Positions 6,140 to 62,024 of a stretch of DNA of 64,000 nt are shown piece by piece. The notes under the pieces were generated by a model. That model saw only the letters and a list, made by a program, of their open reading frames with translations, had not been told where the DNA came from and did not search any database. Numbering within the stretch: the first letter of the stretch is position 1; every line of letters starts with the position of its first letter. Location of the stretch: assembly GCF_021730395.1 (NCBI RefSeq), contig NC_069369.1, positions 15,475,210 through 15,539,209 on the forward strand, read 5' to 3'. The translations under genes were made by a program, and so were the position numbers. The DNA is from Mercenaria mercenaria. Its lineage: Eukaryota.

Positions 6140-6304
6140 ATCATAAGCTGAGCTCTCCATTCATAATCTTTATCATCTATATCATCTAAAGCTTTCACCA
6201 CAGAATGCAGGCTACGTGCCAGGAACTGTCGAAAATTCTGCTTCAAGAACGGACGGCAAAACTGCCAGTATATCACTGAGGCATTGTACACCAGGAAATG
6301 GTAT
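6140..6304 (-). CDS. upstream gene exon 4 (R)YHFLVYNASVIYWQFCRPFLKQNFRQFLARSLHSVVKALDDIDDKDYEWRAQLM
   Basis: Minus-strand acceptor tttctag and donor GTAAGT. Phase-consistent with exons 3 and 5. Confidence 0.6.
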
Positions 6305-7007
6305 CTAGAAATAATACATTGTGTAGAAAAATAATGTCATATTTAATTCTAATAAACAATTTTAACAAAGCCGGTTAACTTTGTTTACACTATATATACA
6401 AAGGTAGTAGAAAAGTGACCCTTATATCTAAGATTCACAATACTGACTTAGCTTGTCTGAAAAGGAAGATCTTGACTTACAGTTGTGGCCTTTGCAAAAT
6501 GTTCTGCAAGTTTTTGTTTACTTCAAATTATTATATAATTCAATCCAGAAAGATTTTTAAATCATTTACAATTATGTTTATTTGATAATGACTTGGACTA
6601 AAAAAAAGTCACCACTTTTTCATTGACAATACCAATAATTAAACGTTGGCGCAGTATTAACTGCCTGGATTTTCTCACCTAGGAAAACCCAGAATTTCCC
6701 AGGCTGGGTAATATCCCTCAAGTGGGCAATACTGGGCAATATGACTTTTTTTGTTTAGATTTACTGCTCAATTTAACCTTTGGTTACTTATTTTACATTG
6801 TTGATCATTCACATTAGAGTATGAACATGTTTATGACATCCTAGTTGCACACAGTGTCTAGAAACAAATGTTGAAATTTCTTGGTTTATTAAATATCATA
6901 AAGAAGTATAATGTTATTACAGAACAACAGTTTATTGCTATATCATAGCAATATCTGAAGCATCTAACTCCATAAGTATTTGGTAACAGAATATTAAAAT
7001 TTATTAC

Positions 7008-7592: not shown

Positions 7593-7726
7593 CTGGAAGG
7601 CAATCTCTGCACATTGGACATAGAGGTCTGGGCTGAATGCCTCTGGATTATCCACTGTAGGTTTATTTTCTGCAACATTTCTCAGCAAACTATAGGCTTG
7701 CAGCAGTGCTGGGTTCTTTTCCTGGC
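7593..7726 (-). CDS. upstream gene exon 2 (G)QEKNPALLQAYSLLRNVAENKPTVDNPEAFSPDLYVQCAEIAFQ
   Basis: Minus-strand acceptor tcttttcag and donor GTTACT. Open frame. Confidence 0.55.
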
Positions 7727-8789
7727 CTGAAAAGACATATCTAAATTGTCAGGCACACAGCTTGATGAAAAGCATATCTTAATGACATCTTTTGGAAGTA
7801 TCCTATCAAATGCACAAACCCATGTCTACCTATTACGGTAGCTAATACAATCAAAATGCAGTACTGTAATGTAGTTGGATGAATTTTTAAGTTGCGTACA
7901 ACAAATTAACTTTAATTTGTTTTAGATCTTTTAGCTATATACCACTTCTTCATTCCATTTTAATTAGATTTATTGTATTTGTAGTCCAAAAATGCTCTCG
8001 TCCTGCAGGGCAAGTACTACAGCATAGTTATGAGCATTGAGCAATTAATATTTTAATACAATAGAAAATTTTGTGATCAAGGAAACGTAACTCTCCCTGA
8101 TCAGAAACATCAAAGTATAAATAATATACTTAATATTTTCATTTTTATTTAATTTCAATTTACATTCAACAGTGATCTGAATTACTAAACAATGATCTAT
8201 TATACTTTCGCTAAAAATATAGAACATCTGGTACAGTCTGATAACCGTCAAATTTATGCTGTACCAGAATGCAAATATTTAAGGTCTGGCCAGGACTCGA
8301 ACTTGTGACCTCTCACACATAAGGGAGACACTCTTACTACTTCGCTATAACAGCAGACTCTATAGCTAGGTAGTGTAAGTTCACCTTTATTCACTACTGG
8401 ACTACATCACATGAACTGGAACAATTCTGTGACAATGACATGCTCTAAATTATTGGTGTAATTAATGACTTTGTTCGCTACTGGCAATATTTGTGTAAAG
8501 AAATAATAAAATGTAATTTTTTCAACATTTTAAATTAAACAAAAGTTCCAAAACTTCTCTGACATGTTTTCTAGAGTATGAACTTACTAACTTGCAGTGC
8601 CAGTGAAATATAACTTATACACCAATTTTTTTATATTTTCTCTTTTAGCAGCACTGGTAAACACTGCTGCAACGACAACCAGCTTTGTACAAAAATCAGC
8701 ATTTACACATTTTAAAAAGGATATCAATCAAAAAGAATTTACAGCTACAAACTTAATACCTCTCTGCATCACACAAAGTCAATAGCATT

Positions 8790-8895
8790 CGCTGTTGTCA
8801 CAGGGTGAGAAAAATGTGCAGCCAGACCGGGACTCGAACCCAGGGCCTCGGAATACCGTTCCGATGTGCTACTGACTGAGCTACTCGGCCGCCTA
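8790..8895 (-). tRNA. tRNA-Thr(GGT)-like unit, probable pseudogene or SINE head (intact anticodon arm TCGGA-ACGGTAT-TCCGA, acceptor stem not pairable)
   Basis: Minus-strand GGCGGCCGAGTAGCTCAGTCAGTAGCACATCGGAACGGTATTCCGAGGCCCTGGGTTCGAGTCCCGGTCTGGC. The 3' flank TGCACATTTTTCTCACCC is shared with the 9040-9135 copy. Confidence 0.4.
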
Positions 8896-9039
8896 CACAC
8901 TTTCTCCCCGTTTAAATATTCAAGTTCTATACCCACTGTTTTGAAATTTGTCCTCAATTTTCAGCGGGCACTTCATATACAAGCAATTTCAGGCATCAGA
9001 GACTAACCAGTGTAATGCCATCATGGCCCCATGTTGGGC

Positions 9040-9135
9040 GCCAAATGTCACTGGGTGAGAAAAATGTGCAGCCAGACCGGGTGTCGAACCTGGGGCCTCG
9101 GAATACCATTCCGATGCTCTACCGACTGAGCTTCC
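9040..9135 (-). tRNA. second tRNA-Thr(GGT)-like unit (D arm GCTCAGTCGGTAGAGC intact, acceptor stem mismatched), probable pseudogene or SINE
   Basis: Minus-strand GGCCGGGAAGCTCAGTCGGTAGAGCATCGGAATGGTATTCCGAGGCCCCAGGTTCGACACCCGGTCTGGC. Confidence 0.4.
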
Positions 9136-9362
9136 CGGCCACCTACACACTTAAGTTCTATACCGCAACCCTGTCAATCAGTATTATAGCTAAGGCTAAG
9201 ATCGACTATCACTGATTCATTCCAAATCAAATGATTCCTAGGCATAAAGTCCATTGGGTACATTTTAACTCGTTACCGGTGCATGTGTACATGTACATCC
9301 CATTATATTTATAAAAATCACAATATGAAAAGAACTATGGTAAGGTCTCTATACAGAGTCAA

Positions 9363-9893
9363 CAGGTCAGAGACTTCCCCTGGACTGAGAGATATTCTCT
9401 CGATCTAAACATTGTCTCTCGTTCGAAAGACAGAATGTCTTTCGATTGAAAGACTCAAATTAGCTTAAGCAATGAAAATCAATGAAAGAGTAATTAAAAC
9501 TCTCTATTTAAAATGCGCAAATTTATTTCATATATAGAAAATTATCTTTCTTTTATCAAATTTTCAAAAACAAAATTTTTTGGGAATTTTGCTTAAGCAT
9601 GATAATGCTTAAGCAAACTTCTATGACAGTGAGTTTCTTGTAAAGTTTACCTGAAATAACAAGTTGTTTTAATAAATAAATAATGCAACTGTAACGGAAT
9701 GTTTGTTTTAATAATGATTTCATGTTTTTTCAACACTTAAGGTAAATACAGTCTTTCGATCGAAAGACATTTTGTCTTTCAAATGAGAGACAGTGTTTAG
9801 ATCTAGAGACTGTATCTATCTTCCGCAGACGTCAAACCCCTTGAGGGAACGTAGACTGTCTCTCAATCCAGTGGAAGTCTCCGACCTGGTCAA
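9363..9893. mobile_element. MITE with TIRs about 90 bp long (CAGGTCAGAGACTTCCCCTGGACTGAGAGA...) inside intron 1 of the upstream gene, about 0.7 kb from the MVP start codon
   Basis: The 5' segment 9363-9460 and the reverse complement of 9750-9893 align over about 90 bp with a few mismatches. Confidence 0.65.
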
Positions 9894-10082
9894 TGTTTAC
9901 TTTTTACAGACGAGTACACTGAAGCAGTCTTGATACATGTACAGTACTTTGCCTCGAAATGTGAACTCTTATCTTATACCCCCACCCCAGGCACCGTGAT
10001 GACAATTCATGAAATGTGGGACAATATCGATACTGATGGCTGAGCAACATATAAAAACCAGAAACGTGTATTGTATACTTAC

Positions 10083-10131
10083 CACTAATTTTTTGGGCTG
10101 CTACTAATAATGAACGTATACTGGTATCCAT
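10083..10131 (-). CDS. upstream gene exon 1 (MDTSIRSLLVAAQKIS, donor GTAAGT)
   Basis: ATG followed by a perfect GGTAAGT donor. Phase 1 joins in frame to the next exon. The ORF-track GTG-start extension is probably 5' UTR. Confidence 0.4.
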
Positions 10132-10581
10132 AATTATTATGTGTGCTGCACTTTCTACTAAAGATTCCGGAAATTTGGACACGCACCTTGTTTACACCGC
10201 CATGTTGTTTGGGCGATTCACATAATTCTATTTAATCATGAACTTGAAAATATAGTTCTAGATTTGAGTTATGAAATTCTATTTCCTTAAATTTAAAGAA
10301 AGTTGCATTCTAGTTCAACTTATTTATGACATTTTATTTTGAAAGTTAGTCTCAATCATGATATATTTTTAAACTTCTAAAAAGAAGTCGTTCTCTTTGA
10401 TTTAACGCGGATTTGTCATAGAAACAGTGATGCGGTTTTAGGTGCAATGTAGAAATAACTGTCTGTGAAAATAACACTCAGTCTCTCTACAGGAAGTTAT
10501 ATCAAGTTATTACCTGTAGGTAAACATAACAAAACAGAACAAAACTAAGTCTTTATCTGAACCTCATATTGAACGACAGCC

Positions 10582-10635
10582 ATGAGTAACATCATAGGTA
10601 TATCACCATTGCAATATGTTCACGTTTTGGACATG
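10582..10635 (+). CDS. MVP: MVP exon 1 (MSNIIGISPLQYVHVLDM), donor GTAAGT
   Basis: ATG followed by an IIxIxPxxYxHVLD motif typical of the MVP N-terminus. A GTAAGT donor sits immediately after the exon. Phase 0. Confidence 0.75.
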
Positions 10636-10959
10636 GTAAGTTAGCTATTTATAATTTATTTTCATTGTATTTTGATCATTGAGCAGTAATTAACTGAAAA
10701 AAATTTCCTGGTGACTTGTATATGTATTGTCTTATACTTACAGAAACTGATACTTTTCAGATCAATGCTTTTAACAGCAAATACATGTTTAGGCGATAGT
10801 TACATTTCGGTACACTCAGTACAGTACTAATTGCTAAATTAGCCAATTGATTAGAGTTGTTTCGCATTTGTTTATATATAGACTGATATTTTGTTCTTAT
10901 CAAACTATCCATTTTGCTCTAAATTAATGTAGCTGATAAATATCCCCATTGTTTTCAAA

Positions 10960-11570
10960 AAAGAGGGAGATAGAAATGGGCTGCATCTTTCCATACGTCC
11001 GTCCGTCCATTTGTGTCTGGTCCATAACTTTGCCATCTGTGATTGGCATCAAGAAATTTTGCCTTGTTACAAATGTTTCCCTATGTGAAACTTTGTCATT
11101 CATCAAGGGATTTTGAAATTACTAAGCAGAAATTTGCCCCATAATGAGAGGACACATCATGTGTAAGACCCAGACCCATAGCTGCAAGGTTAAGGTCACA
11201 CTTAGAGATTAAAGGTTAACATGGTTGGTTTTTTTGTCCAATCCATAACTCTGCCATTTATCAAGGGATTTTGAAATTACCTGGCACAAATTTTCCCCGT
11301 AATGACAATGTGTCATGTGCAAGACCCAGATCCCTATCTTCAAGGTCAAGGTCACTCATGGAGGTCCCAGGTTTAGAGCATCAGTTTCATATACGGTCCA
11401 TATTTTTACCATTCATCAAAGGATTTCAAATTCACTTGGCACAAGTGTTCCCAATAATGAGATGTTGTGTTGTGTGCAAGACCCAGGCCCCTGTCTAAAT
11501 TTAGGTCAAGGTCACACTTAGAGGTAAAAATAATAGGGGATTTTGGTGTGGTCAGTAACTTAACTTTGCA
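10960..11570. repeat. tandem satellite, about 150 bp x 4, in MVP intron 1
   Basis: Recurring ATTCATCAAGGGATTTTGAAATTAC...GACCCAGACCCATAGCTGCAAGGTTAAGGTCACACTTAGAG. Confidence 0.75.
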
Positions 11571-11829
11571 TGGATGGATATTCAAGTAATTTGACACAAA
11601 CAGTCACCATAATAAATTTATTTGTTGAATGTACGACTCTGACTTTTAGCTCAATGTCAAGGTCACCTTTGAAGATTAAATATTTTTGGTATATTTTTGT
11701 CTGATCTGTAATTATTTTATGCATGGGTGTATATTTGAATAACTTTGCATAAATATTCACCATTACAAGACAATGTGTCATATTTAAAGGTCAAGATAGC
11801 AGGCACAAAATAACCTCTTTTTTTAAGCT

Positions 11830-13150
11830 CATCTGAACTTTGTTCCGGGTGAACTATTAGTATAGGTGGATGGTCCGGCGTCCATCATCCTGTGTCCTGC
11901 GTCAACATCTTCTCCTCTGAAACTACTGGTCAGAATTACACTAAACTTGGTCAGTAGCATCCTTGCATGGACCTCCATCAATTTTGTTCAAATGGTTCAC
12001 CTTTGCTTTTAGGGGCTGCCAGAGCTAAAAATAGAAAAACCTTTAAATAACTTCTTCTCATGAACCGCTTGATGGATCTTCATCAATCTTGGTCTGTAGC
12101 ATCATTATAAGGTCTTCTCCCAAATTTGTTCAAATGGGGGCACTTGGACCCTTTTAAGGGCCGCTACAGTTTAAATTATAAATGCCTTCAAATGACTTGT
12201 TCTCATGAACGTCTCGATGGATTTTCATCGAACTTGGTATATAGCATCGTTATAAGATCCACTCCGAATTTTGTACATATGGGGGCTAAAGTTAGAAATA
12301 CATTTAAATAACTTCTTTTTATACTGCTGTACGGATCTTCATCAAATATGGTTTGTAGCATCATTACAAGGTCCTCTCCCAATTTTGTTCAAATGGGGAC
12401 GATTGGCCCTTCTTAGGGGCTACCAGAGCTAAAATTAGAATTGCCTTTAAATCGCTCCTCATGAACCACTCGATGAATCTTCATTAAACTTGACTTGTAG
12501 CATCATTATAAAGTCCTTCACCGACATTGTTCAGTAGGGGGCAATTGTCCAATTTTAGGGGCTGCTAGAGTTAATAAAGATAGAAACACCTTTAAACAAT
12601 TTCTTCTCATGAACCGCTTTATGGATCTTCAGAGGATCATTATAAGGTCTATTCTCAAAAATGGTTCAGTTGGGGGCACTTTGCCCCATTTAGGGGCCAC
12701 TAGAGCTAAAAATAGAAATACCTTTAAAAGACTTCTTCTCATGAACCACTTGATGGATCCTCATCAAACTTTGTCTGTAGCATCATTAGAAGGTCCTTTC
12801 TGAATTTTATTCAAATGGGGACAGTTGGCCTCTTTTTAGGAGTAAAAAAATAGAAATAATTTTGAACTAACTTCTCATTAATTCCTGGGTCTTCATCAAA
12901 CCTTGTATGGAGCATCATAAGGTCCTTTTCCATGTTTGTTTGATTGGGGGCACTTGGCCCCTTTAAGTGGCCGCTAGAGCTTTAAATAGAAATACCTTTG
13001 AAGTACTTCTTCTTATGAATCACTTGATGGCTCTTCATCAAACTTGGTCTATAACATTATTATAAGGTATTAATGACTTATATCAAATTTGTTCAAATGG
13101 TGGCACTTGGGCCCTTTAAGGGGCCACTAGAGTTAAAACAGAAATACCTT
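11830..13150. repeat. tandem satellite, about 160 bp x 8, in MVP intron 1
   Basis: Recurring unit ...CATCAATTTTGTTCAAATGGGGGCACTTGGCCC...GGGGCTGCCAGAGCTAAAAATAGAAA.... Confidence 0.8.
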
Positions 13151-13386
13151 TAAATGATTTGTCTGATGGTGATGCGTTTTTGATGCGTGACAGAAAAATA
13201 TAGGAAAAAAACACTTTTAAAATTTTGTTTTAATGAACGGCTTAAAGGATTTTCACCAAACCTAGTTAGAAGCAATGTCTATGTCTACTTAAGCCCATTT
13301 GGGCCTCTTGTTTGTTTATACATGAAATTATTTCCCTTTTATAAAGTACAATACATTTGTATTTATGTCAGTTTTCCCACTAATTA

Positions 13387-14513
13387 GCTTGACTATTCGA
13401 AGAATAGTCTAGCTATTCTACTCACCCTGGCGTCGGCGTCGGCGTCACACCTTGGTTAAGTTTTTGCATGCAAGTACATACAGCTATCATTTAAAGGCAT
13501 ATAGCTTTGAAACTTATTTATTCTTTTTCTAGGTCAATTACTAACCTCACTGGGTCAAGTTCCATAACTCTAACATGTATTTTGAGCAAATTATGCCCCC
13601 TTTTGGACTTAGAAAATTCTGGTTAAAGTTTTACATGCAAGTTACTATCTCCAAAACTAATGTAGATATTGAATTGAAACTTCACATGTGCCTTCGGGGT
13701 TATAAAACTAGTTGATAGCACCAAGTCCCATAACTCTGACCTTCATTTTGGGCAAATTATGCCCCCTTTTGGACTTAGAAAATTCTGGTTAAAGTTTTGC
13801 ATGCAAGTACATACAGCTATTACTAAAAGGCATATAGATTTGAAACTTATTTTTTTTTTCTAGATCAATTACCTACCTCACTGGGTCAAGTCCCATAACT
13901 CTGACATGTATTTTGGGCAAATTATGCCCCCTTTTGGACTTAGAAAATCCTGGTTAAAGTTTTACATGCAAGTAACTATCTCCAAAACTACTACAGATAT
14001 TAAATTGAAACTTCACACGTGTCTTCGGGGTTATAAAACTAGTTGATAGCACCAAGTCCCATAACTCTGACATGTATTTTGGGCAAATTATGCCCCCTTT
14101 TGGACTTAGAAAATCCTGGTTAAAGTTTTGCGTGCAAGTACATACAGCTATTACCAAAAGGCATATAGCTTTGAAACTTATTTATTCTTTTTCTAGGTCA
14201 ATAACCAACCTCACTGGGTCAAGTTCCATAACTCTTAACATGTATTTTGAGCAAGTTATTCCACCTTTTGGACTTAGAAAATTCTGGTTAAAGTTTTACA
14301 TGCAAGTTACTATCCCCAAAACTAATGCAGATATTGAATTGAAACTTAACATGTTTCTTCGGGGTTATAAAACTAGTTGATAACATCAAGTCCCATAACT
14401 CTGATATGTATTTTGGTCAAATTATGTCCCCTTTCTAACTTAAAACTCTTTTGATATTTCACATTTTGGGTAATAATTTCCTGCTTCTGTGACAATATTT
14501 CGAATAGTCGAGC
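13387..14513. mobile_element. family A TIR element, second copy in opposite orientation, carrying a different internal satellite (about 190 bp x 5.5)
   Basis: GCTTGACTATTCGAAGAAT at 13387 and TTTCGAATAGTCGAGC at 14498-14513. GGCGTCGGCGTCGGCGTCACACCTTGGTTAAG at 13429-13460. Confidence 0.7.
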
Positions 14514-14989
14514 TTGGCCTCTTGTTTAAAAATGCAATCATGTTTAAAGTAACATGATTGGTATTGATTGACATAAAAAGCTATTATTAACAATTGTAGA
14601 CTGCCAGAATGCAAACCCAGGCACAGGTTATAACATTAGGTTTATATAGGTAAATACATTATTGTTATGATTAGGTTGATTTTAATATAAGTAGTGCAGC
14701 TCAGAATGGACCAACATTGGTATTAACTGTCTCTGGTGTGTAACTTAAAAACAAGTTTAATTAGTACCATATATATGTCATGCATTTCAGTTGTTTATTA
14801 ATTTAGATTACCTCCCTTTAGTATGATAAACTATTTCATTATAGTTTTGTTTAATTTTTTTACCAGTTTGAAAATAAAACCACAGTGAATCATTGAAATA
14901 CAGATGTTGATTTGGCATGCAAAATGTTATACATTATACCAGATTAATATAGTGCCCTTTTCATGATAAATGCGTTCGTAGGCGCTTTA

Positions 14990-15365
14990 CATATAGCAAA
15001 CGCAGTCACACAGGGTGCGAAATTCATTCTTTACTAGTACAGACACAGTGCGATCTGACCAGAGGGACAGAGTGAGATTAAGCCCGCAGAACAGATAGAA
15101 AGAAAAATCCTTTTTAGATACAGGCCTGTCCAGCTAACTTAGCTTAGCTCTTTGCAAATAGACAGTCTGGTTCTTTAATGTGCCCGGTGTATAGCACAGA
15201 TACACGCGAAGCCGTCTTCCCTGGGAAGAACCAGTACAGGCCTCTTAGTTAGGTGGGAGACACTTAAGAGCATCTCAGAAATTTCCAGTGCCTGGATCGG
15301 GATTCAAACCCCGGACCTCTAGACGGATAGTCAAGCGTGTTACCACTACACCACCAGCCCATATG
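14990..15365 (-). mobile_element. tRNA-derived SINE (head 15275-15360 on the minus strand)
   Basis: Minus-strand GGGCTGGTGGTGTAGTGGTAACACG...GGTTTGAATCCCGATCCAGGCAC is tRNA-like but has an imperfect acceptor. Confidence 0.5.
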
Positions 15366-15994
15366 AAAAATGTCCCTAGTCAGGAAATCATATTGGTAAC
15401 TGTGTTACAAGTTGTTGCTGGAATTGAAAGTAAGACATTGCGTATCACTTGAATATTTCTATGACACAACTTATTGGACTGTACTGTATAAGTGATGGAT
15501 AACTTTGGTGTGTTGTAAACATTGAGAACTGGATCACCCTTACAGAAATATTATAGTTTGTTGCGATCATGCAACAGGGGACCATGCCACAAACACTTTT
15601 GGTGAAATAGATACATGGACTTTTCACATGCAAATTAGATTTGCTGCAAACAGGTTGCTGCAAACTTCCTGCAAACAAGTTTCTGAGAACTTCCCACAAA
15701 CAAATTGCTTCAGACATTCTGTGAACTTGCTGTGAACAGGTCCCTATGAACATTCTGTGAACAAGCTAAGAACCATAATTATCAAGCAGAATTCAGCCAG
15801 AAACTGTTGTAAGTCTGGCTTACATTTTGGCAAAATTTTGCCCCTTTTACACATAGAAATTGTGATAATGTTTAACCATAAATCCAGCTTAAAATGAATT
15901 AATTTTAACAATTATAGCACTACCATAGTGCTTGTTATCACTTATTAGTTTAATTTTGGGGAGGGTTTCTAAGATGTAGTACCAAGAGTAGCCT

Positions 15995-16260
15995 GTCAGC
16001 TTAGCTCAATAGAGAGAGTGCAGATCTACGGATCACGGAGTCGTGAGTTCATTCCTCTGGCGTGGGGTATATTCTCTGACAATTTGATAGAAGACATTGT
16101 GTCTGAAATCATTGATCCTCCACCTCTGATTCATGTGGGGAAGTTGGTATATAACAACATATCAGATGTCAAAAGTGTTAAAGAAATATTTAGAAAGAGA
16201 TGTAACAAAAAGTTTCAAAAAAATGGAAACAGTATTAATGGCATGTGAATATGTGCTCAG
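15995..16260 (+). mobile_element. tRNA-derived SINE (head AGCTTAGCTCAATAGAGAGAGTGCAGATCTACGGATCACGGAGTCGTGAGTTCATTCCTC)
   Basis: A-box and B-box-like motifs. No intact cloverleaf. Confidence 0.45.
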
Positions 16261-17632
16261 GGCAAAAAGAAATAGCCTTAAGGCAATGATTGTAATAGAA
16301 ATTTATTGTTGTATTGTGCATACATATATTCATATATAGAAGTTATTAAATGTGTATAAAAATAGGTATGACTGTAAATAAATTTACTTTGACGTAGATA
16401 TAGACGTAGATTTGCAGTTAGTTTATCTGACTATACTAAACTGAAACATATTTCTGACATCGCTGATACTTAAGGTAGTAATCTGAGGTCAAATGTTTAG
16501 GTTCATAGGTTAGATAATATCACACATCTCTCCAGTCAGTTTTATATTAAGGTATAGGTTATCCATTATTAAAGCCTTTACCTTAACTGTAAAAAAGGTT
16601 TCCATACAGGCGGCCAGTCTCATTTAACTATATTTTATGATATTATCTAATTTCTGTATATTCTATTACATTTATTTAAGGAGAAAAAGACGATTTACAT
16701 AATGTTAGATCACTTTTAGAAATGTATATTTCTTTCATTTTTATAGAATTTTATAATTGTTCCCCTAAGTATTTTAAAAGCTGAGTATTTCTTTTGATTT
16801 CTGTATAATCACTAGTTGATAGATAATGGAATAACAGTATGAACAAAAAGGCAAATGCTAAAACTGCATGTAGCTTTAGACTTAATTTATTTTCAGTCTG
16901 TCCTTGGTTAACATTCAGGATAGGTAAGCAAAGGGAGCTAATAATAGTTTTAAATCTTGCATTTCTCATAAATTTTGGCTAAATATAACTGTCAATACTA
17001 GTTTTTGACAAATATAAAAAATAGTTCTTATTTACCGGTAAGTCACTTACAAGTGGAACACTGGAGAGGACTACAGGAATTCCCTCTGCATATAAGGTAC
17101 TTTTTGTGGCTTGATGGGTACTTCATAAATAACAAAAAAAAAAAACCTAATAAAGGTCTGTTCATGAGAACATCCATCCCTCTGTCCATCTGCAAATCTG
17201 GATCCTGCTTTACTCAAAAAGTATTCAAGCTAGGTTCATAAAACTTGGTGTGTGAATAGAGGGCAATACATGTATATAGATTATGCACATACATGACTTC
17301 ATGACTTATGCTTGTAGGTCAAAGGTCTAGGTCACTATTGAAGGTCAAGTAAATCATTGATTTTGCTCCATAACTTTTATATGCATTGATGGATTATCTT
17401 AGTGCTATGCAGAAATGTTCCCCATGATGAGATATTGTCAGCACATGACCTATGCTTGTCAGTCAAATGTCAAGGGCACTGTTGAAAGTTTTCCACCAGT
17501 AGGGGACTTCTGTCTTGCCACTGCAATACTTGGTCACTTGTATTCATGAAGTTCCCTAGGCTTTTGTTGATAAAATTAATACTTATGCTAAGATAATTCT
17601 TACTTAAACAAGAGCTGTCGGAGGACAGCAAC

Positions 17633-18566
17633 GCTCGACTATTCAACAGCCTTGTTGACTGAATGAATACGAAAGTCGAAAAAGGGGCATAATTTAAAAA
17701 AGCAAAATAGGGTTATGGAACCTGCATAGTGCTTATCAGCTCATGACAGTGGACAAGTGTGTGAAGTTTCAATCCATTCCCATTAGTGGGTACTGAGATA
17801 CCAGCTTACACATAAGAATTTAACCCAAAACTCCTAAGTTTAAAAAGGGGCATAATTTTGTAAAATGCAAAGTTGAGTTATTGACCTTTTGCACTGCATG
17901 TCATATCATGACAGTGAACAAGTGTGTGAAGTTTCAATCCTTTCCCATTAGTGGATACTGAGATACCAGCGTACATACAAAAACTTAACCAAACATTTCT
18001 ATGTTGAAAAAGGGGCATAATTTTGTCAAAAAGCAAAATAAAGTTATGGGACCTGCTTTGTGCAGTAAGATCATGACAGTGAACAAGAGTGTGAAGTTTC
18101 AATCCATTCCAATTAGTGAGTACTGAGATACCAGCTTACATACAAAACCTTAACCAAAAAATTCTAAGTCAAAAAAGGGGCATAATTTTGTAAAAAAGCA
18201 AAATAGAGTTATGGAACCTGTGCAGTGTAAGTCAGTTTATCACAGTGAATAAGTGTGTGAAGTTTCAATCCATTCCCACAAGTGGTTACTGAGATACCAG
18301 CTTACATACAAAACCTTAACCAAAAATTTCTTAGTCAAAAAAGGGGCATAATTTTGTGAAAAAGCAAACTAGAGTTATGGAACCTGTGCAGTATAAGTCA
18401 GTTTATCACAGTGAATAAGTGTGTGAAGTTTCAATCCATTCCCACAAGTGGTTGCTGAGATACCAGCTTACATACAAAAACTTAACCATATCGGGACGCG
18501 GACGCCGACGCGGACGCCGACACATGGGCGAGTCCAGTAGCTCTACTATTCTATGAATAGTCGAGC
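17633..18566. mobile_element. family A TIR element, third copy (internal array of about 150 bp x 5, related to the 2240-3230 array)
   Basis: GCTCGACTATTCAACAG at 17633 and CTATGAATAGTCGAGC at 18551-18566. GACGCGGACGCCGACGCGGACGCCGACAC at 18494-18523. Confidence 0.65.
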
Positions 18567-20204
18567 TAAAAATGTTATTTTAAATTACATGTTTGGATAA
18601 AAATATTTCAATTTTTTTAAATTCATTTACTAAATTTCACCACTAAAATTATTTATTGCATTAAAACATAACATAACATAACATAAAGTTGATTAACATA
18701 ATAATTTATAGAACTACATGTTATAGTTAATTTAAAAGTTAGATATTGTATATGTAAATATAACACAAGGAAAACTGGAAGTACCAGTAATATTCACATT
18801 AAAACATACATTAATATGAAAACATATTATTCGGCTGCAATAATATTTTAATTATTGCATTTCTGTACATGATAACCCCCAATCAAGCATCACTATCACA
18901 TAGTCATACAAGATTAAAGTCAAATGACATGTTTGGCAATAAGTTAACCCAATGCTGACATATTTCTGTATATTATGGTAACTAGTTAGATTAAATCTCT
19001 GTTTGTTTGACATGCCCCACCGCTAGTGACAAATACTATGCCCCAACGATAACTTGATATTTACAAACATGACTATAAATAGATTAAAATGGAACATAGG
19101 GAAATTACAATCTAAATATTTCTAAATTTTGTACCAATTGCAAATTAGCTCAGTGGTAAAGCATGCAGTCCATGTTAAACAGATCTTTTTCCGTGTGGGT
19201 TCGAAACTCAGCATCGACACTAAATTTTTATTTTTATTTCTCATAAACATTTAGATTCCTTCATGAACTATGTGACAACACAACAGAGAAGTATCTTAAG
19301 CCATTATGGCAGATCAGAAAAGTTTAGCATTATATCAAAGATGATATTGACTGAATGCATGCATATAAGCCATGCAAATAATAAACATATTGTTGTGTTA
19401 TATAAAGGCATACATACAAATACAAACCATCAAGGAAAGAAACAAAAATGAAAACGAAAAGAAAAAAAACGCCACAAAAATACAAAAAATGAAAAAAAAA
19501 TCCTCACGAAGATTCGAACCCACAAAATGATTTGCTTATGATATTCAGTTGTTATCTGCGTTTTACCCGACTGAGCTATGTTTCCATATAATCATAGTAT
19601 ATATTTAAGATGAAAGAAATACTAATATTTACTTAGAGGGTAACGTGTAAGCATTATGGATTGATATTTCATCGGTTATCATGAAATAGAATCGTCCTCG
19701 CGTTTCAGCGGGAATCTTGTTATCATTGGGGATTAGTATTAAGGTTCTTGTCTAAACACAGTCACAGCTATAGCCACAATAACAACTTTTAAGTTAAAAT
19801 CTAAATTATGGATATATATATTGTTATAAATTTTGATAATTTATATTACTGTTCAAAATCCAAATTTACATTGTTGTCAAGTAAAATGCCATTGCAATAC
19901 TTGGTCACTTGTATTCATTAAGTTCTCTAGGCTTTTGTTGATAATACTTATGCTAAGATCATTCTTACTTGGTTCGACATCCAGGATAGGAAAATCAAAT
20001 TTAACAATATTGACATTGAAAATCTAATATGCTATAGTTTCAGTGAGCAAAAATAAGGGAAAATAACCAGATGATAAAGTTTTCAACAATTCCTTTCCTT
20101 GACCAGAATCTGATAAAACACTTTTAAATGCATGTATTATTACTTACCCTTAAAAATACAAGAGTTAATGCCCGTGTAATTATTCATCAATAAAAGTATA
20201 TCGG

Positions 20205-20625
20205 TAGTATTATGTCTCCCACCACGCAGTAGTGTGGGAGACATATTGATTTACTCCTGTCTGTGTGTCTGTCTGTCACAAAGCTTGTCCGCACTCTAAG
20301 TCTAACATTCTCACCTGATCTTCACAAAACTTGAACAAAATGTGTCTGACCATAAGACTTCGGCCAAGTTTGATAACTAGCCAAATCGGCCTAGGCACTT
20401 CAGAATAATGGCCCTTGAATTACCGAAAAATCCTGAGAGCACATGCACTTTCATGCACCCAAAACATACCCTATAATAAAAATAGTATAGGGTACATTTT
20501 GGATGCAAGAAAGCGCATGCACAAGTAGTATAGGGTACATTTTAGGTCCAAGAAAGCGTAGACTGACTTACTATTTAGATGATTAGGCAGTTGTGGGAGA
20601 CATGCGCTTTTCTCAAAAGCATCTC
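20205..20625. mobile_element. MITE-like element with terminal hairpins (GTCTCCCACCACGCAGTAGTGTGGGAGAC ... TGTGGGAGACATGCGC)
   Basis: Inverted-repeat termini around 20210-20245 and 20590-20620. Confidence 0.4.
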
Positions 20626-21189
20626 TAGTTATCCATTTATTTTAATTGGTTATTAGTGAGACTTAGTAAATAAGACTGGTGTTCGTTTAGATCTTTACAA
20701 AGAGCTTAGAATTCAGGTACCACTATCTAGCAGCATGTCAGTACATGCGATCAGCTGTTTAGATGGAACGGAAGCTATGACTAGTGTTCATTTAGGTGAT
20801 ATTGACATACTATTATGCCAGTACTGGCCATTGCTCCCTATTCTTTACATGTTGACAATATTGCTAAACCACAAAAAGCTATTTGATATGTTTTTTATTA
20901 TATCAAAAATGAAAAAAAAAGCCTTTACCGGTAATGTGAAAATTTTCTTAAAAGTCATAGACGTACTTGTACTTCAAACTGTACAAGATCTAAATTTCAT
21001 GGTATACTTATAACTGTGTTGTTTTGCATACATTCCCACTCATTTGTTTCTCATTTTGTGTCAGTAATTAATGAGTAACTAGCATAATATACACTTGCTG
21101 TGATATTTTGTGTGGTTTATTCGTAAGTAATGTTTATATTTAGTATAAATAGGAAATTGAATTGAAGACAAGTTGAAGTATTTCACTGC

Positions 21190-22500
21190 ATAAACTCACA
21201 TTGCTGTGGACAGTTAGTTGATACAATATTCTTAGACTTGTCTAAAGCATTTGACCTAGTCAACCATTCGGTACTGCTGCAAAAACTAAAAACATATAAC
21301 TTTAGTCAAGAATCACTAGATTTGTTTAAATCATATTTAAGTAGTAGATTTCATAAAGTATGCATTTCTGGAAAAATATCTGAATCAAAGCCAATAATGT
21401 CTGGTGTCCCTTAAGGCTCTGTGCTTGGCCCTCTGCTTTTTATTTTATATATCAATGATCTGCCCCAACATCTGAAAGTCTGTTTCACTGATATTTTTGC
21501 AGATGATACAACCTTAACTGTCGTTGGAAACACCAAACAAGAAATCAGTTCTGAGTTGCAATCTGTACTCTCTAAAACTGAGGACTGGTGCAAGCATAAT
21601 TATATGACAGCTAATGTACAAAAAAAAAACCAAAGCAATGTTTATCTCATCAAGAGAAACTAATAAAGATACTTTGAACCCATCACCTCTTACATTCAAT
21701 AAAACTGTGGAATATACAGAATCAGAAAAGCTGTTAGGTGTACATGTCAGTAATAACTTAAGCTGGAAAGATCATATTGATAACACACTAAAGAAATGCA
21801 ATTCCTTACTTTATCTTTTACAATGAATTAAATGCTACCTAGATATTCTCCAGAGAAAACTTTTCTTTAATATTTATATTTTACCCCACTTGGATTATTG
21901 CTGCACGATTTGAGGTAATTGCAACAGAGATTCAATGGAAAAAATTACAAAATTTAAAAAAAGAGCAGCTCAAATCAGCCTTGATAAATGTTTTGATTTT
22001 CCATCTGAAGATTTGTTTAAATAGCAGAACTGGATGAAATTCTATGAACGACTGCATTATTAGAAAGCAGTTTTAGTCTTTAAATCAATTAACAATCTTA
22101 GTCCATCCTATCTTCAAAGTAAATTTAAATTTGTACATAATCCTTACATTACTCTAAGATCAGAATCAAATAAATGTCTTGAAGTACCTAAACCAAGCTT
22201 AGAACTGTACAGAAAATCCCTTGAATACTCAGGACCAAAAATCTGGAACTTATTTAACCTCTTGAAGTAAAAAATTCTAACAGTCTTGAGCAGTTCAAAA
22301 GATCCTATCTGACAGACTGGAAAATGAACAACATAACCCCTATGCTTAGATTTTCTTGTCATCATGCTATTGTCAAATTTGTGTTTGAAATGTATTTGTA
22401 AATATTGTATATAATTTTGAGGCTCACTTGGAAGATTGGGCATGCCTAATAGTGTTGCCTCAATGAATAAAATCATTATTATTATTATTATTATTATTAT
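21190..22500 (+). pseudogene. LINE (CR1/RTE-like) reverse-transcriptase fragment, decayed, with an (ATT)n tail
   Basis: Reads LDLSKAFDLVNHSVLLQKLK...GVP*GSVLGPLLFILYINDLP...FADDTTL...LLGVHVSNNLSWKDHI in one frame with a stop and frameshifts. (ATT)10 at 22470-22500. Sits in MVP intron 1. Confidence 0.75.
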
Positions 22501-22506
22501 CATTAG

Positions 22507-22900
22507 CCATTAGCTCATCTGATTTTTAAAAAAAAAATGATGAGTTATTGTCTTCACTTGATCGGCGTCGGCGTCGGCATTGCCTGGTTAAGTTTTATGT
22601 TTAGGTCAGCTTTTCTCCTAAACTATCAAAGCTATTGCTTTGAAACTTGCAACACTTGTTCACCATCATAAGCTGACCCTGGTCCGGATCCAGGGCCGGG
22701 CCGAGGGGGCCTGTGTCCCCCCCCCCACCCCTCCAGTTGGCTGAGAAGTGACCTATACTCATCAAAAGATGCACCCTACTATTTTGGCAAAGGAATATTT
22801 TTCTCTCAAAATTTAGACCCAGAAACGCACCAGAGGCCACCATTTCATATCTGTATTTTAAAATTTTCCAGGGGGAGAGCCCCTGTACATCAAGAAACAT
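22507..22900. mobile_element. truncated family B element (5' end only) interrupted by a GC-rich palindromic insertion (22690-22880)
   Basis: TAGCTCATCTGATTTTTAAAAAAAAAATGATGAGTTATTGTCTTCACTTGATCGGCGTCGGCGTCGGCATTGCCTGGTTAAG is nearly identical to the 24935 copy. Confidence 0.5.
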
Positions 22901-23870
22901 AACTCAGTGCTCTTGTTATTATTATGGAAACACAAGGCATTCCAAACTAAAAACAGTTGATTGGCTACGATAGTTTTGAAATTTTGTGTGTCTTGTCATA
23001 AAATGAGATATGTAGATTTTACCGTTCCTTAAACATGGAAAAAGTTGCATTTGATGCAACATTAATACATAAATTTTGCTTTTCTAACAGCCGCTGAAGA
23101 TTTTGTTGCTTCAGAGGTTTATAATTTTATAAGAATGTAACATCGGATCAGTTTAAATACTCTGTAAGGAGATATAAGCAAGAGTTTCGTTAATTTTTGA
23201 AGTAGAAAGTGGAAGTTGCAAAGTAGGGAGGGGTCCTCCTATTTAGAACATAATTTGATACAGGAAAAGTAGCCAGGGCTTCAGAACTCTTTAGCAGGGA
23301 GTATTCCTCGTCCCTATGACCCTTAATGAAACCCATAATGAGTGGAAACAAGCTCATGTAATGATAATTAATGTAATTTCATATCAGAATATATTGTAAT
23401 CTATTTCTCAACCCATGTATATGTGTAGTACTAAACAAATATTTGGCATGAATCTATTTACAAATATTACTCTTTTGTGAAACTAAGTGTCTTCTTTTTC
23501 ATATTTATTTGTGTGTCCTCTTTTGTAGACAAGCCACTAGACTGGTAATAAAACATTACAAAGTAAGGTATTTTCATGTTAGGAGCCAAAAACTTGTATT
23601 TTCTGGAGAATTTCTTGGAGAAAGTATAGAAGGATTATGGTATCGATCAGAAAAAGGATATAGAGTAGCTCCATTTACTAGAATTGAAATATAAAAGAAA
23701 ATATAACTAGGAGCTATTCTACCTTCTTCAGTATTGTAGTTCATTATATGGACAAAATTGTTCTTGGATGCCATGATGTTGATGCATTGCGCTAGCTTAA
23801 ATATTGACATGAATTGTGTGGGTAAGCTCTAGAACTGGTAATATGAAATAGATTATTTTGTCTCTTTCAG

Positions 23871-24004
23871 AATTCCAACATTACAAGAGTGGAGACTGGT
23901 CCACAAACTGTAGTCTTGGATGCCAATGAAAGACTGGTTGCCGGCCCACTTACTATGATTGTTATACCACCAGTCCATTTTTGTATGATTAAAAATCCTA
24001 TGTC
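23871..24004 (+). CDS. MVP: MVP exon 2 (NSNITRVETGPQTVVLDANERLVAGPLTMIVIPPVHFCMIKNPMS)
   Basis: Acceptor tctctttcag and donor GTAAGT. Matches the first MVP repeat (NSNVSRVEVGP...VPPRHYC..NPV). Ends in phase 2. Confidence 0.85.
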
Positions 24005-24293
24005 GTAAGTATATCTGTTGATGTTTTTAAAGACTACGGTAAAACTTGATTATATACAATTATATTCATTTAAATAATTTTTATGTGCTGTACAATTATA
24101 CTAGACCGTTCTTTCAGAAAAAAGGATTACAGTAACATACTTGGCATAAAATTCAAATACTTTTATTTTAATGTGTTAAAGACAGTTAACTATATCTAGT
24201 TGTCAGATTAACAGTTATTCTTAGCTAGTAATTGACAGCTTCCCCACATGGTACTTTCAATAAATGAACTGAAATATTTTTTTCTCTGTCCAG

Positions 24294-24670: not shown

Positions 24671-24898
24671 GAGCCATTTTGTTTATATCCCGGTGAGGAG
24701 TTGGTTGGGGCAGAGAGCTATGGTAAGGGCAGTTCAGATTACAAAGCAGCTATCAGAGCACAGCCGGTCATCCAAGCTGACCATGCCATACGACTTACTG
24801 CAGTCCTCGATCACACAGACACAGATGGTGTTAAGAGAAAGGCTGGTGATATCTGGCAGATAGAGGGACCATTGATGTACTTTCCTACACCGAATGCT
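24671..24898 (+). CDS. MVP: MVP exon 4 (EPFCLYPGEELV...IRLTAVLDHTDTDGVKRKAGDIWQIEGPLMYFPTPNA)
   Basis: Acceptor ttgcctgcag and donor GTAAGT. Matches DPFPLYPGE...LHLKALLDFEDKDG.K..AGDEW..EGP..YIP. Contains roughly 10 extra residues relative to vertebrate MVP. Confidence 0.85.
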
Positions 24899-30884: not shown

Positions 30885-31149
30885 TCCATTTTAACTTCTA
30901 TTGATGCCACTCAGTGGATTTTCTTTTTCTATATGAATAATCAGATTGTCAGGGAACACAAAACTTATTTCATAGTGAATTGTCTACTTTTGATAGCAAG
31001 GTGCTTTTGACTCAAAATTGATTGATTAGAGACATTAGCTTAGAAGCGTAAAACATTCAGGCACCTATACTTTTTCTCAAAGTAATCTTAGAATATATGT
31101 CAGGCCACAAGAACCTATAAATTACTTTATGGACATTTTAACAGCATAC

Positions 31150-31600
31150 ATAGAGGATAATTGTTGGTTTCGGTGTAATATCACGTTATAATTTCACCGA
31201 GTGGGCACCAGAAGTGATATTTTCACGAGTGGCGCAGCCACGAGTGAAAATAACAACTTTTGGTGTTCACGAGTGAAATTACCGTGATATTACATCGATA
31301 CCAACAATTTTTCTTTTTTATTTTATGTCTAAAATTCTACTTTTGTTGTGTTTATTTCAATAAAATGTCAAATTTGCGGGAAATTTTATCAGGAAGCATC
31401 GCAAAGATGACGTCATTTTAACGACGTCATCGTCATATTGTTTCCGGCTTTCAGTACGCTCGGTAAACTTTTTGACATTAATCCGGGTATCAGATTTGAT
31501 AATTTTCACTGAGTGGCCAGTGAGTTTATCAGGATATAATTCACCGTTATATTTCGATAAACCACCGAAAAACATAAAATAAAATGTCATATTTCATACT
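31150..31600. repeat. composite palindromic TE-like segment. TIRs GGTTTCGGTGTAATATCACG/CGTGATATTACATCGATACCAACA (31155-31310), followed by a perfect 26-bp palindrome GATGACGTCATTTTAACGACGTCATC containing two TGACGTCA (CRE) octamers
   Basis: Inverted repeats seen directly. CRE palindrome at about 31398-31432. Confidence 0.5.
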
Positions 31601-31784
31601 ACTGGGTAGTTGTGGTTATAATCTTGCATGTAGCAGGAACTGAAGTTACAAGTTGAGATGTGGTTCATACATGTCAGTAACTTCTAAGATATTTATGAAT
31701 AAAAAACTGAAATATTTGGGGAGAGGGGCAGTAGATACAGAAATGTGGTGTATTGTTTTTAACATTATACTACCTGTACTGTAG

Positions 31785-55000: not shown

Positions 55001-56088
55001 TAAGAACTGCTGTTAAATAATCAAGTGTGAGTTGCCTGCACTTGTAGATGTGTATTGGTGATTGACAATAAACCTGATAGAGACAAAATCAGACATTTTG
55101 TTTTTCTATTTTTGAGTCGGCTAAACGCTGAAAGCGTTTGACGAGTCCTTGCTATCGCCCGTTTTCTCATTCACATTAAATGGCCTCACAACACAGCGAA
55201 TTGATGTAGTTCCATTAGATTGTCTTTAATTTCAAGGAGTTCATTGATCGGATGAAGTTCAGTTATGTCAATCCCATTTGCTATGACCAATATACGATGT
55301 ATTCTGTCAAATTTATAAAGTGTAATTGTGCAATACTCGAATAAAGCCACGCATTTCTTCCGCGGTAACTCATTAAGCATAAACACGCGTAACGATTCTG
55401 CGGGATTTCGTAATACATTTGTGCATATGATAATGGTAACTAATGTTATGCCCTTTTGTCACAAAATAGCAAATATGATGTTCACAAATTCAAATAAAAA
55501 CTGCATATTAACTTATTAGCCAAATTATCCATTTGTTACCCTGTCCGTTTCAAAAAAATAATCTTTTAAATCATTGCACAAATAACAAATTTATTGCGCT
55601 GTGCATTTCATGAATTGCGCAGGCTCACCAAGCTTGCGTAACATCCAGCAAGAGACAAAATATAGTTCCAGAACATACTGCTACTATTTCATTGAGTCGG
55701 GTACCTCTGAAAGCATTTGACTGTCTCTTATCAAAGAGTTTACCAAATCGATGAAATTAAATTATGACAGCTTCATTTTAAATGACCCGAATAAGATATG
55801 TGCAGTACGTTAATTCTTCTGTGAGACTTTGCGGATGAATCCTAACTACACTCTGGGCACTTGTCGGCGAACACACGTGACCTGTTTACAACAACGCTTC
55901 TACGACTTTGCGTTTGAAAATACGGACTTCGGTTTACCAAAAAAAAATACTACGAAGATCGGCCAGATAAAAATGATGCAAAATTGCGAGTTGCGAAAAT
56001 GCAAAAGTCTATAATTTTGTTCTAAATCGTAACCTTTCTGGAATTTCGACTGGTTCGGAGAATTTGCTTACGATTCAGGTCGCAAAAA

Positions 56089-56176
56089 ATGAAACTGTCA
56101 CCCATTCTTGATGACACATGGGTTGAATTTTGCAGTCAGTTAGCGGATAAATTTTCGGGAGAAGAAGCTTGTACTG
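56089..56176 (+). CDS. candidate first coding exon (MKLSPILDDTWVEFCSQLADKFSGEEACT, donor GTTTGT) of an unidentified gene
   Basis: ATG in an aaaaaATGa context, a 29-codon open frame and then a GT donor. It lies at the 3' edge of a CpG-retaining block (55100-56180). No downstream exons were found in the window. Confidence 0.15.
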
Positions 56177-57960
56177 GTTTGTTTAATTACTACTGATTTT
56201 AAAAATGATTTTATTTCTTATTTTCGAGAAATAAACAATCCGCGACACATTAAATTGTATTTTCTTGTAGTTTTCGAAATCGAAAGTAGATCGTCTATGT
56301 AAGAATGCTTTGACAAAACGAAACATTGTTTTTATGAAATTATTTAAATAAGAGGTAATTTCACCGTAAACTTCAATGTCAGATACTGCCAACTGCTGCT
56401 AAACTGTCTTCACATCATCACAATTTGTAAAACATATTGTTGAAACTGGAGATTTTGGCGGTATTAAGAAAAGTGTACGTATCCAGATTTTTATTTTGGG
56501 TAAATATCGAGCTGTGTTATAAAATTTTAACATTCAAGTCACAGACATGATAGATATTATTGTAACAGAAATGATTCTAGAATTTATTTATAGATAACAC
56601 ATACATAGAATCTATATCAGACATTTATTCTAGTCCTGAGGCATGACCTGAAAGTAAAAATATGAAGTGACAGTCATTCATACTTTGGATATTGTAATAC
56701 TAAAAAGAATCTAGGTAATATTTAGAAATAGAAACATAAAATTTTCAGTTAGAAATCGCACCAAAAGCTGTATCAAAGGTGTACATTTTTAAAAATTTTC
56801 TTGTGGTGATACCCCAAATCCTTCTTGCAGGAGGGGGGTATCCTCCCACACCTTCCTCTCATATTGCCACTTACAGTTTGATACATTTGCCCTTTTACCA
56901 CCTGCCACAATGCCCATTTCAAAATCTCACTGCAATTCAAAGGAACACCCTTCCCCACACCCACCCTGCTATCGACCACGTAAAAATGGCTCAAACATTT
57001 TTCAGCCCAGCCTGAGCCTGTCTGTCTACATGAATCAAAATGGATAATTAAAAGTGCATGGATTTGGGGACTACTGACATGGTTTTGAAGGGGTTAACAG
57101 GTCTGAAATAGAATAAATGATGGTTTTAACTAAAAATGAACTGCATTTATTAATATTGGTTTTCTTTTCGAAATTGGTAGCTAGTCCGAGTGCTTCCCTT
57201 AGTTTCGAATGTGCAATTTTCCTGTCAGTGTAAACAATCATGACATTGACACTCAGCAACATTTACATATCTTTAAACGCAAAAGTAAGTATACTTTAAA
57301 TTCACATCACTTATAATATGATTGAACAATACCTAATGTATGACACGGTTATCGCCAGGCCCGTTATCTGTAAAATATCTGAACAGTTCTTTCGTCCATC
57401 CATTACAAATTGTATGTGGCAATCAGCGCTATAAAAATTCAATATTGTCATATTCAAATTTTATCATGTATGAATATATACCAGCCGATAATTGCCTGTT
57501 TTTGGTAATGCCAGAGGCAAATGTTTACTGGAAAAATATATATAGTCATGGGCAGTATCTTAGTGTCAGCGGTCAAATTGTAGTTTGTACTTTCAACATT
57601 TTTATTTTTGCGAACCACTCTTCAATTTTAGAGAAATATATTGGGTTTAGATACATGTATAATGTCAATCAAAGTTTTTCTAGGCATCGATTGAATGTCC
57701 ATTTCATCTATTGTAACAAAATCTCTGTTCTGTTGTAAAAAAACACTAAAAACAAACTGAAACTGGTAGACTATACTACCAGTACATCAATCATTAGCCG
57801 ACTCTCAGGCCCTTCTGGCCTTTGATTATTTCATCTATTCAAATGGAAATTATGATTTGTATTACATAAACTTTCTTTAAACAAGAAGAACAGTCAACTC
57901 ACAGTGCATTGCTAAGGGACATCGCATTTACATCCGCAAATTACCATTTTTGGAACTTGG

Positions 57961-59400: not shown

Positions 59401-59612
59401 TCATCTTTTAACTTCTTTTAAATAACTATGAAACTTTGCATCTAGAAACTGATATAATGCACTATTTGTGTCCTTTGATGAATCTGTTGCCATGGTAACA
59501 AGGTCTCTAGGTATTTCAACTGTTCCAGATTTAAGACTGTCTAAAAGCTGTTTCCGTACTGTCTGTAATAATCCAGCAAGAGACTTCATTTCTACTTTAC
59601 CCATCGAATTTT
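59401..59612 (-). CDS. downstream convergent gene, terminal exon (E)NSMGKVEMKSLAGLLQTVRKQLLDSLKSGTVEIPRDLVTMATDSSKDTNSALYQFLDAKFHSYLKEVKR*
   Basis: Minus-strand acceptor tttattacag. A 67-aa ORF ends in TGA at 59401-59403. Joins in frame (phase 1) to the exon at 61798..61970. Confidence 0.55.
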
Positions 59613-61970: not shown

Positions 61971-62024
61971 CTTTAAAAAAAATTATTTGATATAAGACAT
62001 AATCAGGCAATCATGCTATGAAGT

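Follow-up and report, generated by a model that had tools for sequence, protein, structure and literature searches.

Head-to-head CFAP46 and MVP genes of Mercenaria mercenaria and the CpG-retaining spacer that probably holds their two back-to-back promoters

When two genes face each other across a few hundred base pairs, the question is whether one promoter serves both of them or two promoters lie side by side. In this work, we address it for a locus of the clam Mercenaria mercenaria, using a 64-kb stretch of contig NC_069369.1 (assembly GCF_021730395.1, positions 15,475,210 to 15,539,209), which is called below the window and numbered from its first letter. The gene of major vault protein (MVP) lies there on the plus strand, head to head with a minus-strand gene that an earlier sequence-only reading had left without a name, and the spacer of about 450 bp between their start codons had been proposed to be a shared, CpG-retaining bidirectional promoter. 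In our analysis the neighbour is CFAP46 (TTC40/FAP46), and the spacer probably contains two independent TATA-less core promoters, set back to back and sharing one unmethylated region. This is a real but ordinary divergent gene pair, for which shared regulation is unlikely.

The two genes and their start codons

The joined minus-strand exons matched the Pfam family PF25439 (TPR_CFAP46_N) with 82.1 bits at a cut-off of 27 (E 4.4e-23), which identifies the gene as CFAP46; their best named matches were CFAP46 of Bulinus truncatus and Esox lucius, and a transcript-derived protein (P0001) showed 78% identity to them over the full query length. In eight aligned N-termini from fish, tunicate and molluscs residues M1, D2, I5, R6 and A12 are invariant, and the opening MDxxIR is kept from fish to molluscs. 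Six-frame translation of the 64-kb window yields the motif MD..IR.[LC][LI] only once, and the N-terminal peptide motif of MVP likewise. The sequence-only reading had staked its first exon of this gene on a splice to position 7726, and the splice is borne out: GT and AG sites were read at the two ends of intron 1 (7727-10082, 2.36 kb), the join of exons 1 and 2 is continuous in every one of the eight aligned sequences, and the joined exons match P0001 and a related bivalve locus (L003) without a break. L003 carries the same CFAP46 exon 1 (MDSSIRSLLVAAQKIVG) at 6269-6322, 83% identical and followed by an intron 1 of 2.7 kb. About 280 amino acids (aa) of the protein were mapped inside the window, beyond the left edge of which the gene continues; CFAP46 orthologues are about 2,700 aa long.

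The plus-strand gene is major vault protein, as judged by its vault repeat and shoulder domains and by orthology. Its exon 1 peptide is identical to the N-terminus of M. mercenaria XP_053406855.1 (P0030, "major vault protein-like"), a protein with the domains PF01505, PF17794-6 and PF11978, to which the exon bodies show about 100% identity; P0155, a cluster mate of P0030, resembles Ruditapes. Twenty-four MVP exons were mapped on the plus strand between 10582 and 52082 by tblastn with P0030 and with human MVP, the last of the coding exons reaching to about 52082. The join of exons 1 and 2 parallels human IPPYHYIHVLDQ/NSNVSRVEVGPK. Intron 1 (10636-23870) measures 13.2 kb; its counterpart in Mactra (L007) has about 2 kb, and that in another bivalve locus (L010) 2.5 kb.

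Both start codons, at 10131 on the minus strand and at 10582 on the plus strand, are exactly those given by the sequence-only reading, and the eight CFAP46 N-termini and the RefSeq MVP model agree with them. Bidirectional promoters were reportedly defined for vertebrates by Trinklein in 2004 by start sites less than 1 kb apart. The clam spacer would fit this operational definition provided that the first coding exons are also the first exons, and only in that case are the 450 bp between the ATGs an upper bound on the start-site distance. All open frames in the spacer are very short, and no other gene or RNA gene lies there. Scanning of 9900-10800 gave no Rfam match at E<=1, and a non-coding RNA (e.g. 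a vault RNA) in the spacer was rejected. No repeat copy of the spacer was found elsewhere in the window, and a transposable-element origin was rejected on this ground.

CpG retention and motifs in the spacer

The spacer had been described as retaining CpG in an otherwise CpG-poor sequence, and this holds: the observed/expected ratio (o/e) of CpG is 0.80 in its 450 bp against 0.36 in the window, with 0.31-0.36 in the MVP body and 0.27 in the CFAP46 body. Its G+C content (31.6%) is lower than the window mean of 34.6%, so that the GC-rich, CpG-island hallmark of vertebrates is absent. Among 450-bp windows the spacer ranks at the 94.6th percentile by o/e and at the 83rd by raw CpG count; about 4.05 CpGs would be expected in it at the window-wide o/e (Poisson P 0.023, uncorrected). 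The enrichment is real, modest and not the strongest of the window. The segment 10380-10460, on which special emphasis had been laid, does contain four CpGs, but 4.7% of all 81-bp windows match it, and it is not exceptional alone.

The CpG o/e falls on both sides just past the two first coding exons. On the CFAP46 side raised CpG also reaches into intron 1 (8401-10082, o/e 0.69); within 8401-10581, 25 of the 50 CpGs belong to two 107-nt tRNA-like repeats and a foldback element, and the o/e outside the repeats is 0.61. In the gene bodies TpG and CpA stand at about 1.25 (range about 1.2-1.3), an excess which is the signature of deamination, and inside the spacer the excess is lower (TpG 1.17, CpA 1.09).

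A similar retention was found at orthologous loci. For the 450 bp located 5' of the MVP ATG the o/e (locus-wide value in brackets) is 0.84 (0.44) in Mactra, 1.31 (0.46) in L010, 1.14 (0.36) in Tegillarca and 1.19 (0.32) in Sinanodonta, and for the 450 bp 5' of the CFAP46 ATG it is 0.85 (0.53) in L003 and 0.80 (0.55) in Bulinus; the Ostrea MVP flank is the exception (0.57, locus 0.59). Raised values (0.8-1.3) are present in six of the seven upstream flanks, all from species without MVP/CFAP46 adjacency. Because the same CpG-retaining 5' flanks occur where the genes are not neighbours, CpG retention is not a mark of bidirectionality; its consistency with an unmethylated promoter stands. In the oyster Crassostrea gigas methylation climbs sharply past the transcription start site, and promoters are generally unmethylated (PMC4378273). 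We infer that CpG survives in the clam spacer because promoters stay unmethylated, as in other bivalves; germline methylation would cover the transcribed bodies, starting just past the transcription start sites, and would leave the promoters free. The retention in the spacer is the ordinary footprint of a promoter, presumably unmethylated, adjoining methylated gene bodies.

Most CpGs of the spacer fall into two blocks, A beside CFAP46 and B towards MVP (Table 1). The subregion 10132-10214 has 42% G+C and four CpGs, counting one which straddles 10214/10215, and 10436-10581 has 34% G+C and one CpG. Block A is likely to be the core promoter or 5' untranslated region (UTR) of CFAP46, and block B is likely to be the upstream part of the MVP core promoter. 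Block A would serve the minus strand and block B would serve MVP, with the 174-bp AT-rich gap between them, and both transcription start sites are predicted inside the spacer, near 10170-10230 on the minus strand and near 10440-10500 on the plus strand. On the minus strand the 69 nt directly before the CFAP46 start codon contain no ATG, and beyond them lies a three-codon upstream open reading frame (ORF), ATG GCG GTG TAA. Together with the ATG-free stretch before MVP, a candidate 5' UTR, this suggests that the two 5' UTRs are short and separate and that transcription starts at sites about 250-320 bp apart.

About 19 motifs were tried in the spacer scan, and single consensus matches of this kind do not demonstrate binding. 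The earlier statement that no TATA box is obvious agrees with the scan, as TATAWAWR has 0 matches in 10083-10635 against 0.87 expected; CCAAT, GGGCGG, an NRF1 site, a cyclic AMP response element, an E-box and a gamma-activated site (GAS) are also missing from the spacer. Block A contains the palindrome TTCCGGAA at 10165-10172 (two sites in the window), TGTTTAC at 10189-10195 (58-64 bp from the CFAP46 ATG) and CGCCATGTT at 10198-10206, which reads AACATGGCGGTG in the CFAP46 sense and is the sole CGCCATNTT in 64 kb. On general knowledge we take these motifs to be ETS-like, forkhead-type and YY1-type, respectively. In L003 AAGATGGC stands in the same orientation 102 bp 5' of the CFAP46 ATG, which, given the number of motifs tried, is suggestive only. 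The blastn comparison of the spacer with L003 returned the coding exon only, and 7-/8-mers shared among six MVP and three CFAP46 upstream regions were not above shuffled controls.

Block B includes an X-box-like palindrome, TTTGTCATAGAAAC at 10412-10425 (281-294 bp from the CFAP46 ATG), with one mismatch to the consensus GTNRCC N0-3 RGYAAC. An RFX X-box as the control element of CFAP46 was rejected, since such one-mismatch matches occur 19 times in the window against 17.6 expected. No X-box was found near the CFAP46 ATG in L003 or in Bulinus (L002). The only perfect palindromic X-box of the window, GTTGCCATGGTAAC at 59486-59499, lies within the last coding exon of KTI12 and is probably coincidental.

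Conservation of the pair and competing explanations

In human, MVP (16p11.2) and CFAP46 (10q26) are not known to be neighbours. The sequence-only reading had proposed looking for the neighbour of MVP in other molluscs, and the outcome was negative in six comparisons. In Mactra antiquata, which belongs to the same order, exon 1 of MVP lies at L007:10001 and no CFAP46 exon was found in the 10 kb upstream, while KTI12 is the downstream, tail-to-tail neighbour of MVP both there and in the window (59404-61972, minus strand). No CFAP46 exon or gene call was found within 10 kb upstream of MVP in Tegillarca, Sinanodonta and Ostrea, and in Bulinus the 10 kb before CFAP46 hold no exon of MVP. In sample ERZ26273219 the CFAP46 N-terminus is at 2.17 Mb of a 3.8-Mb contig (L003) and MVP at 1.87 Mb of a separate 2.6-Mb contig (L010), and neither locus holds the first exon of the partner; the MVP gene of L010 has the same lineage-specific insertion in exon 4 as that of the window. 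In Ruditapes (L011) over 10 kb separate exon 3 of MVP from exons 1-2.

Since the adjacency is absent in six comparisons, the pairing is not ancestral; judging from these flanks, it appears to be specific to the Mercenaria or venerid lineage. Given this apparent lineage specificity, CFAP46 and MVP are probably regulated largely independently: CFAP46 would follow the motile-cilia programme and MVP broad or stress-related inputs, as is expected from general knowledge. Co-regulation with the neighbour had been put forward as informative about MVP function. It is unlikely to say much, because the pairing is not conserved, and co-regulation with CFAP46 is therefore a poor route to that function. The main value of the analysis is in annotation, namely the identity of the neighbour as CFAP46 and the confirmation of both first coding exons and of the 13.2-kb MVP intron 1.

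Several points weigh against two independent promoters in one unmethylated region. The CpG numbers are small (nine in total, P about 0.02 before any correction). The ETS-like palindrome and the YY1-like site are of types reportedly enriched in vertebrate bidirectional promoters and would fit shared regulation equally well. An acceptor-like ctctctacag/G at 10493/10494, 88 nt 5' of the MVP ATG, would permit a non-coding exon further upstream. The negative synteny covers only 6-10 kb flanks in most species, and the pair may be conserved within Veneridae, Ruditapes being the closest available genome besides Mercenaria.

The best surviving alternative, which we nevertheless consider unlikely, is that the spacer is a truly shared bidirectional promoter, with one nucleosome-free region, common sites (TTCCGGAA, CGCCATGTT) and co-expression of both genes, e.g. 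in ciliated gill epithelium. It would suit two ATGs 450 bp apart with nothing intervening, but the CpG blocks are separate, one per gene, with 174 bp of CpG-free sequence at 22% G+C between them. The ETS-like and YY1-like motifs are rare (0.03 and 0.01-0.1 expected in the interval), and TATA depletion, which the spacer shows, and GABPA-type sites are typical of bidirectional promoters (review, PMC11676430); yet the spacer has only 32% G+C and lacks a CpG island, GC box, CCAAT box and NRF1 site. Expression is correlated in most human head-to-head pairs (PMC1487180). Functional head-to-head pairs, however, tend toward conservation in vertebrates (PMC1487180), and this arrangement is missing in the six comparisons, the same-order species included; in invertebrates such pairs are reportedly less conserved (PMC12672016). 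The expected expression also differs, as on general knowledge CFAP46 is specific to motile cilia and MVP is broadly expressed.

Less probable again is that one or both genes have their promoter outside the spacer. MVP, for example, could start upstream of 10131 and splice to 10493/10494, in which case the transcripts would overlap head to head and part of the spacer would be intron or UTR. The acceptor-like site would allow this, and TATAAAA is present on the plus strand at 10051-10057, within CFAP46 intron 1; against it, the CpG o/e drops just past both first coding exons, as if transcription and gene-body methylation started in the spacer. Human MVP has its start codon in exon 2, behind a non-coding first exon. 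In the clam, however, the sequence directly before both ATGs is ATG-free, and Mactra, L010 and other species also retain CpG directly upstream of the MVP ATG.

A retention of CpG that arose by chance in a short AT-rich interval, and that tells nothing about methylation or promoters, is very improbable, for although the nine CpGs reach only the 83rd percentile by count and the 95th by o/e, the highlighted core is equalled by 4.7% of 81-bp windows and several intronic patches have a higher o/e, the enrichment recurs in six of seven independent orthologous flanks, falls exactly at the two gene 5' ends and goes together with a TpG/CpA excess (1.17, 1.09) below that of the gene bodies (about 1.2-1.3).

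Two back-to-back core promoters are the explanation that we prefer. Should the 450-bp spacer prove by experiment to drive transcription in both directions, it could serve in clams as a compact, native bidirectional promoter where two genes are to be expressed. A bolder proposal, to which we give very little credence, is that the venerid MVP and CFAP46 promoters have fused into one co-regulated unit, coupling vault production to the motile-cilia programme, e.g. in gill or velar ciliated cells; if true, it would hint at a cilia-related role for vaults.

Surrounding features and comparison with known systems

The coordinates of the spacer and of the exons are collected in Table 1.

Table 1. Positions of the CFAP46 and MVP exons and of the parts of the spacer in the window
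Feature	Position	Strand	Details
CFAP46 coding exon 1	10083-10131	-	49 nt; ATG 10131-10129; MDTSIRSLLVAAQKIS plus first base (G) of a Gly codon; GT donor 10082-10081
CFAP46 exon 2	7593-7726	-	GQEKNPALLQAY...AEIAFQ; AG acceptor 7728-7727
Further CFAP46 exons (approximate)	7201-7008, 6306-6142, 5458-5333, 4788-4693, 4177-4085	-	mapped by tblastn with P0001
Spacer between the two start codons	10132-10581		exactly 450 bp; G+C 31.6%; 9 CpGs; o/e 0.80
CpG block A	10165-10215		CpGs 10168, 10182, 10198, 10214; about 50% G+C; 34-84 bp from CFAP46 ATG
Central AT-rich stretch	10215-10388		174 bp; G+C 21.8%; no CpG; divides blocks A and B
CpG block B	10389-10435		4 CpGs; G+C 43%; about 150-190 bp from MVP ATG
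Putative MVP 5' UTR	10448-10581	+	134 nt ATG-free; last upstream ATG 10447; contains CAGGAAGT at 10490-10497
MVP coding exon 1	10582-10635	+	ATG 10582-10584; encodes MSNIIGISPLQYVHVLDM; donor gtaagt at 10636
MVP exon 2	23871-24005	+	preceded by tttcag; begins NSNITRVETGPQ...

Intron 1 of CFAP46 contains two tRNA-like units on the minus strand (8796-8902 and 9046-9152), 107 nt each, 250 bp apart and 89% identical, roughly 1 kb away from the promoter. In both of them a TTTTT run comes after A and B boxes, and one copy was called, at 9068-9140, as tRNA-Thr with anticodon GGT (Rfam 45.7 bits; ARAGORN), an anticodon unusual in eukaryotes. They may be heads of tRNA-derived short interspersed elements or genes of RNA polymerase III. 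The same intron holds a foldback element at 9352-9899, resembling miniature inverted-repeat transposable elements, with inverted arms of about 113-150 nt that are 80% complementary; its 12 CpGs swell the apparent CpG-rich zone adjoining the promoter.

Within MVP intron 1 tandem repeats with a unit of about 160 bp were noticed at 11089-11529. Exon 4 (24671-24898) contains a segment, VGAESYGKGSSDYKAA, which is missing from the aligned human and Mactra MVP and is present in Ruditapes and in two bivalve assemblies from ENA. In the public annotation of Mactra antiquata MVP appears as two genes (215 aa and 658 aa) flanking an intronic minus-strand gene of 615 aa without a Pfam match (L001 5071-9511, equal to L007 16465-20905); the 615-aa gene is probably a transposable element and the split of MVP an annotation artefact. 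Transposon ORFs also lie in MVP introns directly 5' of exon 4 in two other bivalve assemblies (L010 8320-9384, L008 8754-9374), one of them with HTH_48 and DDE_3 domains (Tc1/mariner-type), the other with reverse-transcriptase and PHD domains. In Ostrea edulis (L006 4320-6218) a single-exon gene of a 632-aa amidohydrolase (PF07969, PF01979) shares the strand of MVP and stands about 3.8 kb 5' of it; for an oyster chromosome a bacterial-type gene without introns is unusual.

CpG enrichment in the window is strongest in a patch at 55100-56600 (o/e up to 1.66, G+C 33-39%), which sits in the tail-to-tail gap between the 3' ends of MVP (about 52.08 kb) and KTI12 (59.4 kb). A Pfam scan of the open frames in the CpG-rich 55-58 kb gave nothing above the curated cut-off, and the patch may represent a promoter missing from the annotation, a non-coding gene or a repeat of recent origin. 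CpG is also retained inside MVP introns at 31100-31700 (o/e 1.49) and 18400-19900 (about 1.1), which may be internal promoters or young transposable elements.

Vertebrate head-to-head pairs with start sites less than 1 kb apart were described by Li et al. 2006 (PMC1487180). The clam genes resemble them in lying on opposite strands with their 5' ends facing, 450 bp apart and with no intervening gene, and differ from them in a pairing that is not conserved in the other molluscs checked and in partners that are functionally unrelated. With vertebrate bidirectional promoters the spacer shares the lack of a TATA box and the ETS-like and YY1-like motifs, whereas its 32% G+C and the missing CpG island, GC box, CCAAT box and NRF1 site set it apart (PMC11676430).

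The human MVP/LRP promoter, according to the summary of Lange et al. 2000 in PMC3216873, is TATA-less and without other classical core elements; the sites reported in it are an inverted CCAAT box, a GC box, one for p53 and one of GAS/STAT type. Compared with this promoter, the clam spacer is likewise TATA-less but has no CCAAT, GGGCGG or TTCNNNGAA; a p53 site was not scanned for.

As a motile-cilia gene, CFAP46 can also be compared with promoters controlled by RFX/FOXJ1. Promoters of motile-cilia genes that are under RFX/FOXJ1 control carry X-box and forkhead sites. Upstream of the clam gene a forkhead-type TGTTTAC and an X-box-like palindrome are present; the latter differs from a true X-box by its one mismatch, is found at chance frequency and has no counterpart near the CFAP46 ATG in L003 and Bulinus.

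A further parallel is with the mosaic (gene-body) methylation of bivalves. The clam locus is judged from CpG decay alone, in contrast to the measured methylation of Crassostrea gigas, and on the CFAP46 side its CpG zone extends 1.7 kb into intron 1, partly through repeats. It shares with the bivalve pattern two CpG-depleted transcription units (about 0.3), their TpG/CpA excess and the retention of CpG at the 5' flank.

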